A stretch of DNA of 64,000 bases, taken from sequence record PV390659.2; one strand, written 5' to 3'. The DNA is from Escherichia phage vB_EcoM_P8. A model generated the notes under the pieces. That model was not told where the DNA came from and ran no database searches. It saw only the letters and a program-made list of their open reading frames with translations. The first letter of the stretch is position 1, and each line of letters begins with the position of its first letter. This document shows, piece by piece, positions 1-1,834 of the stretch. The translations under genes were made by a program, and so were the position numbers.

Positions 1-972
1 CCTAAATTCACACAAGTAAATAATAGTTCAACTTTTAAATTACGGTTTAGATGCCCTGTTTGTGGAGATTCAAAAACCGACCAAAATAAAGCTCGTGGAT
101 GGTATTATGGCGATAATAATGAAGGAAATATTCATTGCTATAACTGTAACTATCATGCACCAATCGGAATATATTTAAAGGAGTTTGAACCTGATTTATA
201 TCGTGAGTATATCTTTGAAATAAGAAAAGAAAAAGGTAAAAGTCGTCCAGTAGAAAAACCTAAAGAACTTCCTAAACAACCCGAGAAGAAAATAATTAAA
301 TCTCTTCCGTCATGCATTAGATTAGATAAACTGACGGAAGACCATCCAATTATAAAATACGTAAAAGCTCGTTGTATTCCAAAGGATAAATGGAAATATC
401 TTTGGTTTACAACCGAATGGCCTAAATTAGTTAATAGTATAGCACCAGGAACATATAAAAAGGAAATACCTGAGCCTCGTCTTGTTATTCCAATTTATAA
501 TGCTAATGGAAAAGCTGAGTCTTTTCAAGGACGTGCATTAAAGAAAGATGCTCCTCAAAAATATATCACCATCAAAGCTTATCCTGAGGCAACAAAAATC
601 TATGGTGTTGAACGAGTTAAAGATGGTGATGTATATGTTCTAGAAGGACCTATAGATTCACTTTTTATTGAAAATGGTATAGCTATTACAGGCGGTCAAT
701 TAGACCTAGAAATTGTTCCATTTAAAGATAGACGAGTATGGGTTTTGGATAATGAACCTCGTCATCCTGATACTATTAAACGAATGACTAAATTAGTTGA
801 CGCAGGAGAAAGGGTTATGTTTTGGGATAAATCTCCCTGGAAATCAAAAGATGTTAATGATATGATTAGAAAGGAAGGTGCAACCCCTGAACAAATTATG
901 GAATATATGAAAAATAATATTGCCCAAGGGTTGATGGCTAAAATGCGGCTATCTAAATATGCTAAGATTTAA
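1..972 (+). CDS. 61: DNA primase gp61 (5' end lies outside window)
   Basis: Frame-1 ORF open from base 1; translation PKFTQVNNSSTFKLRFRCPVCGDSKTDQNKARGWYY... with CxxC zinc-ribbon matches T4 gp61 as recalled. Confidence 0.9.
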   Translation, partial: PKFTQVNNSSTFKLRFRCPVCGDSKTDQNKARGWYYGDNNEGNIHCYNCNYHAPIGIYLKEFEPDLYREYIFEIRKEKGKSRPVEKPKELPKQPEKKIIKSLPSCIRLDKLTEDHPIIKYVKARCIPKDKWKYLWFTTEWPKLVNSIAPGTYKKEIPEPRLVIPIYNANGKAESFQGRALKKDAPQKYITIKAYPEATKIYGVERVKDGDVYVLEGPIDSLFIENGIAITGGQLDLEIVPFKDRRVWVLDNEPRHPDTIKRMTKLVDAGERVMFWDKSPWKSKDVNDMIRKEGATPEQIMEYMKNNIAQGLMAKMRLSKYAKI

Positions 973-1169
973 ATTAATCCAACTAAAGCAAATGCTAAAT
1001 CTACGAATGTATCGAGAGTAATTACTGGAATACTAACGCCATGAGCAATAGCAATTGGCGATAAAATAAAGTTCCATAGTAAAATTCCTATCATAGCAGA
1101 AATAGTAAAAGCTATACGTTTTTTATTACCTTTTATGGCATTAACAAGTGCCATTAATTTTTGTACCAT
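969..1169 (-). CDS. hypothetical small membrane protein (2 predicted TM helices), antisense to flanking genes
   Basis: 66-codon ORF; AAGGAGG 6 nt upstream of ATG on minus strand; hydrophobic; overlaps gene 61 stop by 4 nt. Confidence 0.45.
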   Translation of the reverse strand: MVQKLMALVNAIKGNKKRIAFTISAMIGILLWNFILSPIAIAHGVSIPVITLDTFVDLAFALVGLI

Positions 1170-1218
1170 GCGTCGTCCTCCTTTAAATTAAATATTTATC
1201 GCAAATTTTACAAAATTT

Positions 1219-1250
1219 GTTTACTTTCTCAGCTTGCTGTGGTATTATAA
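1219..1250 (+). promoter_or_regulatory. T4-type early promoter (GTTTAC -35, TATTAT -10) with stem-loop
   Basis: GTTTAC at 1219, 18-nt spacer, -10 inside CTCAGC/GCTGAG inverted repeat. Confidence 0.5.
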
Positions 1251-1273
1251 AATAAACTGCTGAGGATAATATA

Positions 1274-1834
1274 ATGATTAATAAAATTGTACATGAAATG
1301 GCTTTAAACGGAGATTCATATAAAATATCTGCCGTAGTTGAAAATTTCATACTTAATAAAGTAAAAGAATATTTCACTGATTGTTCAGTTAGTTATCAAG
1401 AAAAAATGGTTTTAATCGACGATACTGAAAAATCAAATAATTTGTTTTGTTCGAATTTTACAACTAAGAAGCGTACTAGAAGATTTGATATTGTCATTTC
1501 TCGCAATGGTAAAAAGCATATAATTGAAATCAAACACCAAGTTGGTGGAGGTACAGCCATTGATTCGGTTGGAATATATCTGGAAGATAAAGATAAATTA
1601 AAAGAATACACAAAAACTGAAAATCCTGTGTCATTGATGATATTAGATTTTTTGCCATGCGGATATTATCCGCGTAATAAGTGGACAAAAAGAGAATCAT
1701 TTACTGATAATCCAACCATCCAAGCAAGGTTTAATGAATATGCTAAATCACAAAACGTGTTAGTATTACTATCAAATACATATGATGAAGAATTATATAA
1801 TTCGTTTTTTGCTGCAATAAATGAGAGAATATAA
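1274..1834 (+). CDS. hypothetical protein with PD-(D/E)xK-like nuclease signature, translationally coupled to dam
   Basis: 186 aa; SD GAGGA 8 nt upstream; motif [19 protein letters not shown] (D-x13-E-x-K); stop overlaps dam start (TAATG). Confidence 0.6.

Follow-up and report, generated by a model that had tools for sequence, protein, structure and literature searches.

Candidate restriction-modification cassette formed by a predicted nuclease gene and dam in T2-like phages

Between genes 61 and 56 of Escherichia phage vB_EcoM_P8 (sequence record PV390659.2), the gene of the T2/T4-type Dam methyltransferase, dam, is directly preceded by an open reading frame (ORF) of 186 codons, here called ORF186, which is predicted to encode a nuclease of the PD-(D/E)xK restriction-endonuclease fold. 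Both genes lie near the start of the 64,000-nucleotide stretch that was analysed, hereafter the window, to which all positions refer unless another record or locus is named. On balance, ORF186 and dam are best regarded as a phage-borne, two-gene cassette resembling a type II restriction-modification (R-M) system. T4, where dam stands without a nuclease gene, looks like a deletion derivative, with its Dam as the surviving half of a cassette that is intact in T2; as far as could be found, this origin of T4 Dam is unreported.

The source phage is a T2-like Tequatrovirus. Positions 700–2100 of the window are 100% identical to the Escherichia phages vB_EcoM-G28 and BMB16, and match 503 phage records, nearly all of which are Tequatrovirus. 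The product of dam (1834–2613, plus strand) is a D12-class N6-adenine methyltransferase (PF02086, E-value 1e-50; TIGR00571, E-value 1.2e-69) with 98% identity to T2 Dam. The Dam enzymes of T2 and T4 methylate GATC.

A predicted nuclease paired with Dam

ORF186 (1274–1834, plus strand) is a real gene under purifying selection. The ratio of nonsynonymous to synonymous substitution rates (dN/dS) is 0.04–0.16 in close pairs, and homologues at 29–63% identity retain its length and position. It belongs to phrog_8706, a family of unknown function, and is present at full length in about 154 phage records (148 from Tequatrovirus, the others from Jiaodavirus), T2 among them; the T2 dam sequence of 1988 (M22342) already contains a copy, which was left unannotated. 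One GenBank record, that of phage Shinka, names the product a 'putative restriction endonuclease'. Judged by sequence searches, the family is very small. Its profile has only 12 matches in 1.84 billion representative proteins, with every context examined being a T4-like phage, and the contigs of IMG/VR and metagenomes contribute just five loci, all of them close to the Tequatrovirus (98%) or KPV15 (44%) copies.

The protein of 186 residues (21.6 kDa) consists of a single compact catalytic domain. An AlphaFold2 (AF2) model based on an eight-sequence alignment (predicted local distance difference test score, pLDDT, 81; predicted template-modelling score, pTM, 0.79) has the order alpha-beta-beta-beta-alpha-beta, which is the core of the restriction-endonuclease fold. 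In Foldseek, the model reaches template-modelling scores of 0.55–0.59 to MunI, and the top-scoring and best-covering structural neighbours are type IIP restriction enzymes of comparable size. Searches of solved structures with the single sequence and with the profile gave nothing usable, and a search of the viral folds in BFVD with the model returned just uncharacterised proteins and generic endonucleases.

In an alignment of nine family members with identities as low as 29%, E23, Q42, R69, D72, E85, K87, H88 and Q89 are invariant; further invariant positions in the same set are G93–S98, P118, S120 and D125. In the model, D72 lies in strand 67–77, while E85 and K87 lie in strand 80–88. Thus, the invariance of E23, D72, E85 and K87 means that the full PD-(D/E)xK catalytic set is preserved, with D...(D/E)xK on beta2/beta3 and the glutamate of helix 1 (E23). 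The initial annotation, which was made from the sequence alone, had called the product PD-(D/E)xK-like, and this reading has held: the restriction-endonuclease fold is predicted, the catalytic residues are conserved, and neither a match to a 61.x protein lacking a nuclease fold nor a failure of the motif to be conserved was found. The signature it described as D-x13-E-x-K is present, but its spacing is one residue shorter (D72-x12-E85-x-K87). As modelled, ORF186 is a protein of the PD-(D/E)xK restriction-endonuclease fold and a predicted nuclease. Matches in curated libraries are all sub-threshold, yet always of one kind: Pfam gives DpnII, BanI and HSDR_N across the family (DpnII in four of the nine members, best E-value 8.3e-5), and PADLOC gives REase_II (best E-value 5.3e-6).

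Each ORF186 homologue found stands directly upstream of, or overlaps, a gene for a T4-type D12 methyltransferase. This holds in nine independent contexts with differing neighbourhoods, namely the window, where the two genes overlap in TAATG with the ATG of dam at 1834, as first described; T2, where a gap of 14 nt separates them; four metagenome contexts at 55–63% identity; the Klebsiella phage KPV15 (Jiaodavirus, 44% identity), in which the pair lies between the rIIB region and a topoisomerase gene and not between 61 and 56; and the loci L009 and L010, with homologues of 225–227 residues at 29–37% identity, the latter adjoining rIIA. The tie between a nuclease-fold protein and Dam that had been proposed is therefore borne out across 29–98% identity and at least three genomic neighbourhoods. 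In all pairs, the nuclease diverges faster than the methylase (29–63% vs 51–72% identity).

The predicted nuclease gene is thus adjacent to the gene of a site-specific methylase and is inherited with it as a unit. Loss is one-sided: Dam without the nuclease does occur, while none of the approximately 154 genomes with ORF186 has the nuclease only. This asymmetry, together with adjacency and co-divergence, is the pattern predicted for a restriction-modification pair.

In T2 (L012, NC_054931.1, 1501–2046), a 1-nt deletion near the 3' end shortens ORF186 to 181 codons with an altered C-terminus, and the 14-nt gap replaces the TAATG overlap; the same variant is seen in the remnant that T4 retains. 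Since dam has its own Shine-Dalgarno sequence (SD) and stands without overlap in both T2 and T4, the translational coupling that had been suggested from the overlap is optional.

Upstream of ORF186, a consensus scan identified a sigma-70 promoter of the T4 early type (1220–1248, plus strand), composed of TTTACT, a 17-nt spacer and TG-n-TATTAT. The form (G)TTTAC(A)-17-TGnTATAAT lies upstream of all homologues (L004, L008, KPV15 and L010). Given an early-type promoter of its own in every lineage, the cassette would be a self-contained early transcription unit, and this promoter is likely to drive early transcription of both genes. A 64-codon ORF with a GTG start on the minus strand (1183–1377) was rejected as spurious; its span takes in the promoter of the cassette as well as the ORF186 start, and its family matches are at noise level.

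An inverted repeat lies across the -10 hexamer of the cassette promoter or the SD of ORF186 (1226–1266 in the window, ~90–135 in L010, ~4300–4335 in L008 and ~3425–3460 in L003). Its sequence differs between lineages, with z-scores of -5.1 in L010, -3.2 in L008, -1.6 in KPV15, -1.4 in T2 and -0.95 in the window. It might serve as an operator through which the cassette regulates itself, or form a hairpin that keeps read-through transcripts from being translated; an RNA hairpin over the ORF186 SD of the window is not significant alone (z about -0.9).

Allelic states of the cassette and the T4 deletion

Three alleles occur in Tequatrovirus. The full cassette is found in 148 records, a T4-type deletion that removes the nuclease and keeps dam in about 33, and an empty site in about 320, the last count being the difference between two record searches. 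The empty site was checked in RB18, where ORF66, a small gene next to gene 61, is separated from gene 56 by 71 bp, and in one Mosigvirus with the order 61-ORF66-56. In the alignment with RB18, homology ends at window position 1199 and resumes at 2618, which delimits a cassette of promoter, ORF186 and dam of approximately 1.4 kb (1200–2617, plus strand; boundaries good to ~10 nt). The boundaries are AT-rich near-repeats (ATATTTAT / TTATATATT). The cassette lies between conserved genes, occurs in several neighbourhoods and varies in its presence among relatives; it appears to be mobile. In L008, an extra ORF of 93 codons (4010–4291) lies between ORF66 and the ORF186 homologue, its MazG-like match (E-value 0.0017) being below the cut-off; this extra ORF marks the junction as a recurrent insertion site.

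The gene order of T4 is 41-dmd-61.4-sp-61.2-61.1-61-(309 bp)-dam-56, and phage Lutter has the same order. The initial annotation had placed 61.1, 61.2, sp, 61.4 and dmd in the 61–dam interval of T4, and had regarded the interval in the window as a shorter replacement of these genes. The T4 record puts all five upstream of gene 61, outside the window, so that this premise rested on a mistaken map; the interval is in fact longer than that of T4 (861 bp vs 309 bp). Because dmd and the 61.x genes sit upstream of gene 61, the missing Dmd-like ORF, which had been considered worthy of remark, carries no meaning.

The 309-bp gap of T4 contains a 66-codon homologue of ORF66, which AF158101 leaves unannotated and a newer T4 record lists as a gene, as well as a non-coding remnant corresponding to the last ~28 codons of ORF186. 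The segment missing from T4-type genomes comprises 549 bp (1206–1754, plus strand) between two CAAA microhomologies, and takes with it the ORF186 promoter and about 160 codons. The partial-coverage records listed (eight rows) all begin at query position 474, and this shared start suggests a single deletion event; the T4-type deletion thus may have arisen once.

ORF66 and the flanking genes

The left-hand neighbour of the cassette is ORF66 (969–1169, minus strand), a gene of 66 codons that lies tail-to-tail with gene 61. The window begins within gene 61 (DNA primase), of which it holds the 3' part (1–972, plus strand); the translation corresponds to the C-terminus of T4 gp61, and the matching records annotate a DNA primase. 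The overlap of the ORF66 stop with that of gene 61, and the AAGGAGG ahead of its start, were both found as first described. ORF66 matches phrog_2024 (E-value 1.2e-30; function unknown) and is present in 695 phage records, with gene 61 as its tail-to-tail partner throughout. No match was found in Pfam, NCBIfam or PADLOC, and full-text literature searches returned no description of either ORF66 or ORF186.

The AF2 model of ORF66 has helices at 2–12, 16–42 and 52–62, the N-terminal one being basic (KGNKKR). From the model and hydropathy, one of the two transmembrane helices attributed to the protein is clear (~16–42), but the second is only a short hydrophobic C-terminal helix (52–62). The signals upstream (1177–1200, minus strand) were read from sequence, and their function is putative: the SD AAGGAGG (complement of 1177–1183) lies 7 nt upstream of the ATG, and a late-promoter-like box, GATAAATA (complement of 1193–1200), is the same in T4. 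In all the lineages compared, (T/G/A)ATAAATA recurs ~20 nt upstream along with AGGAGG; L008, a divergent relative, has a perfect TATAAATA ahead of ORF66. The two strands of the 64-kb window together have just 15 copies of ATAAATA, and the Lutter record annotates a promoter at the ORF66 upstream site. ORF66 is probably a conserved small inner-membrane protein that is expressed late. The label 'holin', given to a homologue by one database, was rejected: the C-terminus is hydrophobic (...FALVGLI), and the neighbours are primase and dam/56, not lysis genes.

That ORF66 is an artefact, or merely a region of antisense RNA regulating gene 61, is very improbable. It is missing from the reference T4 annotation, it overlaps the gene 61 stop, and a plus-strand terminator-like hairpin lies within it; however, its dN/dS is 0.10–0.15 in close pairs, homologues of ~50% amino-acid identity in Mosigvirus and other genera have the same length and position, the strong SD and the late-promoter-like box recur, and hundreds of records annotate it as a gene. 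The hairpin (1135–1154, plus strand; 8-bp stem and T-run, 163 nt past the gene 61 stop) is antisense to the 5' coding region of ORF66, and may stop transcription from gene 61 short of the cassette promoter. The initial annotation had grouped ORF66 with the nuclease and Dam. It is not part of the cassette, since it occurs in all three allelic states; T4, RB18 and Mosigvirus have it whether the cassette is there or not.

On its right, the cassette is flanked by the conserved gene 56 (dCTPase; 2674–3192, plus strand), which is annotated in T4, T2 and RB18. It is directly followed by soc after a gap of 82 bp (3192–3275). In RB18, the 56–soc interval holds two additional small virion-protein genes, which makes it a second variable spot.

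Proposed function, alternatives and significance

In the proposed mechanism, ORF186 would be the endonuclease half of the cassette, a compact PD-(D/E)xK enzyme that structurally belongs with the MunI/EcoRI-like class and is remotely related to the DpnII core. Both genes would be transcribed early from the sigma-70 promoter of the cassette. The nuclease would cut unmodified cytosine DNA at or around GATC sites without N6-adenine methylation, and the phage genome would be shielded by Dam methylation and, regardless of this, by glucosylated hydroxymethylcytosine (glucosyl-hmC). E. coli DNA is already Dam-methylated, so the plausible targets would be under-methylated foreign DNA in the infected cell, such as that of co-infecting phages and plasmids, and dam-deficient or freshly replicated host DNA. 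The 549-bp deletion would have cost T4 its nuclease and left it with a Dam that looks like an orphan. We infer all of the nuclease activity, the GATC specificity, the block by methylation and the biological targets. Cleavage of GATC is proposed because of the analogy to DpnII/MboI and because the partner is a GATC methylase; that ORF186 is GATC-specific and blocked by methylation is put forward tentatively, as a possibility suggested by this analogy.

The DpnII/MboI systems of GATC specificity have adjacent nuclease and methylase genes, with a methylase (e.g., DpnM) of the same Pfam family as Dam, PF02086. For a profile comparison, the DpnII seed sequence was verified (PF04556, E-value 2.7e-100; 99–100% identical to database DpnII). 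Aligned with this profile by hhalign, the ORF186 family gives an E-value of 4.5e-4 over 91 columns, with a probability of 33%. The alignment pairs E23/E152, Q42/Q176, R69-F-D72/R199-F-D201, E85/E214 and G93/G222, all of them invariant or almost so in the two families. The matches of the catalytic core to DpnII are recurrent but weak. A remote kinship of the catalytic core, and not family membership, appears credible from these alignments. Compared to DpnII, ORF186 is smaller (186 vs ~288 residues), has ExK in place of ExN, scores below the cut-off, and is found in T4-like phages only and not in bacteria.

Several observations weigh against a GATC-directed restriction-modification cassette. The single-sequence match of ORF186 to Pfam DpnII (PF04556) scores 16.7 bits against a gathering cut-off of 23, thus below the family threshold, and is restricted to the core (positions 153–233 of the 278 in the hidden Markov model), leaving the N-terminal ~120 residues of DpnII without a counterpart in ORF186; the low hhalign probability points the same way, and K87 falls opposite an asparagine (N216) of DpnII. 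The best structural neighbour, MunI, recognises CAATTG and not GATC, and pairs with a different type of methylase than Dam. Identity to the MunI/EcoRI class of type IIP enzymes is just 11–13%, the likeness being that of a predicted model. The nuclease activity and specificity of ORF186 are themselves predictions. About 70% of Tequatroviruses lack the nuclease, and searches of 185,579 bacterial species genomes and of plasmids turned up no homologue that could attest to an R-M origin. With host DNA Dam-methylated and phage DNA hypermodified, there is no obvious target and no evident reason for self-protection. Of all 4-bp palindromes in the 64-kb window, GATC is by far the most depleted (64 observed vs 219 expected, observed/expected ratio 0.29), and this was considered as support for GATC specificity and rejected. 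GATC is even rarer (ratio 0.19) in a 50-kb stretch of a Mosigvirus (L021, LR027383.1, 1–50000) in which dam and ORF186 are both absent from the 61|56 junction, so that the depletion is a feature of these phages in general and has no link to the cassette.

Since host DNA is Dam-methylated in established E. coli biology, only a methyl-dependent enzyme would target the host chromosome. ORF186 might then be a DpnI-like nuclease that cuts the methylated chromosome, with phage Dam topping up methylation and glucosyl-hmC protecting the phage; early expression, and a neighbouring dCTPase gene (56) that belongs to the programme against cytosine DNA, would fit this. Such an enzyme is nonetheless unlikely. 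Neither a winged-helix nor another N6-methyladenine (m6A) reader domain was found in the Pfam scan or the AF2 model of this single compact domain, and the remote likeness is to the methylation-blocked DpnII, not to DpnI. Moreover, a phage that lost Dam would suffer no harm in a dam-plus host, so that nuclease-only genomes would be expected; that none was found among the roughly 154 speaks for a classical enzyme that methylation blocks. It also seems rather unlikely that the nuclease fold serves some other purpose, be it as a structure-specific nuclease in repair or recombination, as an RNase, or as an inactive protein that binds DNA alongside Dam or regulates Dam. The invariant E-D-ExK set argues against an inactive protein, the neighbours with the best scores and coverage are type IIP restriction enzymes of much the same size, and none of these roles would explain why the gene is always paired with that of a site-specific methyltransferase.

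The cassette also resembles the Seg/Mob homing endonucleases of these phages in being optional, in having its own promoter, in lying between conserved genes and in being polymorphic among close relatives. A selfish, free-standing nuclease of this type would cleave relatives that lack the cassette close to their 61|56 junction, and recombinational repair would then spread the cassette, with Dam as a passenger or protector of the home site. This is quite improbable, because the fold is PD-(D/E)xK and the Pfam scan found no GIY-YIG or HNH domain in ORF186, which has no extended DNA-binding domain as in Seg/Mob. Strict co-inheritance and co-divergence with a methyltransferase are an R-M pattern, the 'empty' allele of T4 is an internal deletion with a remnant rather than a naive target site, and the cassette is the minority state, unlike what efficient homing would produce.

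The preferred reading, a restriction-modification cassette, has precedents in viruses. The chlorovirus enzymes R.CviAI/M.CviAI (GATC) and the EcoP1 system of phage P1 are virus-borne and biochemically proven. As in these, a virus encodes a nuclease and a protecting methylase, the nuclease being aimed (here, by proposal) at non-self DNA. In contrast to them, the carrier is a virulent phage with hypermodified DNA, and the likeness is one of arrangement, known from the genes. The cassette would, on the weight of the evidence, be of the type II R-M kind in an unusual carrier.

To our knowledge, the textbook enzyme Dam of T2 and T4 has no clearly established role in the phage, although the T4 protein has been studied for decades, and it is routinely listed as an orphan. 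A review (PMC12707154) places T4 Dam among the phage orphan methyltransferases. The dam gene of the window is the orthologue of T4 dam at the same 61–56 locus; unlike in T4, an intact nuclease gene precedes it here, in T2 and in 148 phage records. A restriction-modification cassette is a concrete candidate for the source of T2/T4 Dam: most of the Tequatroviruses that carry dam, T2 among them, have it as the second gene behind that of the nuclease. A new, small restriction enzyme directed at GATC is a testable prediction. In practice the gain is modest: two 'hypothetical' genes can be better annotated across hundreds of phage genomes that are therapeutic candidates, and a new family of restriction enzymes may be added. 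It is tempting to speculate, although this is doubtful, that T-even phages deploy an active self-encoded GATC restriction enzyme offensively to destroy cytosine DNA that is under-methylated, whether from co-infecting phages, plasmids or the products of host replication, with their own DNA doubly protected, the cassette moving among T4-like genera, and T4 Dam being the relic of a weapon. If true, the retention of a restriction enzyme, under purifying selection, by a hypermodified virulent phage would point to warfare of phage against phage, or of phage against plasmid, and not to defence of the host.

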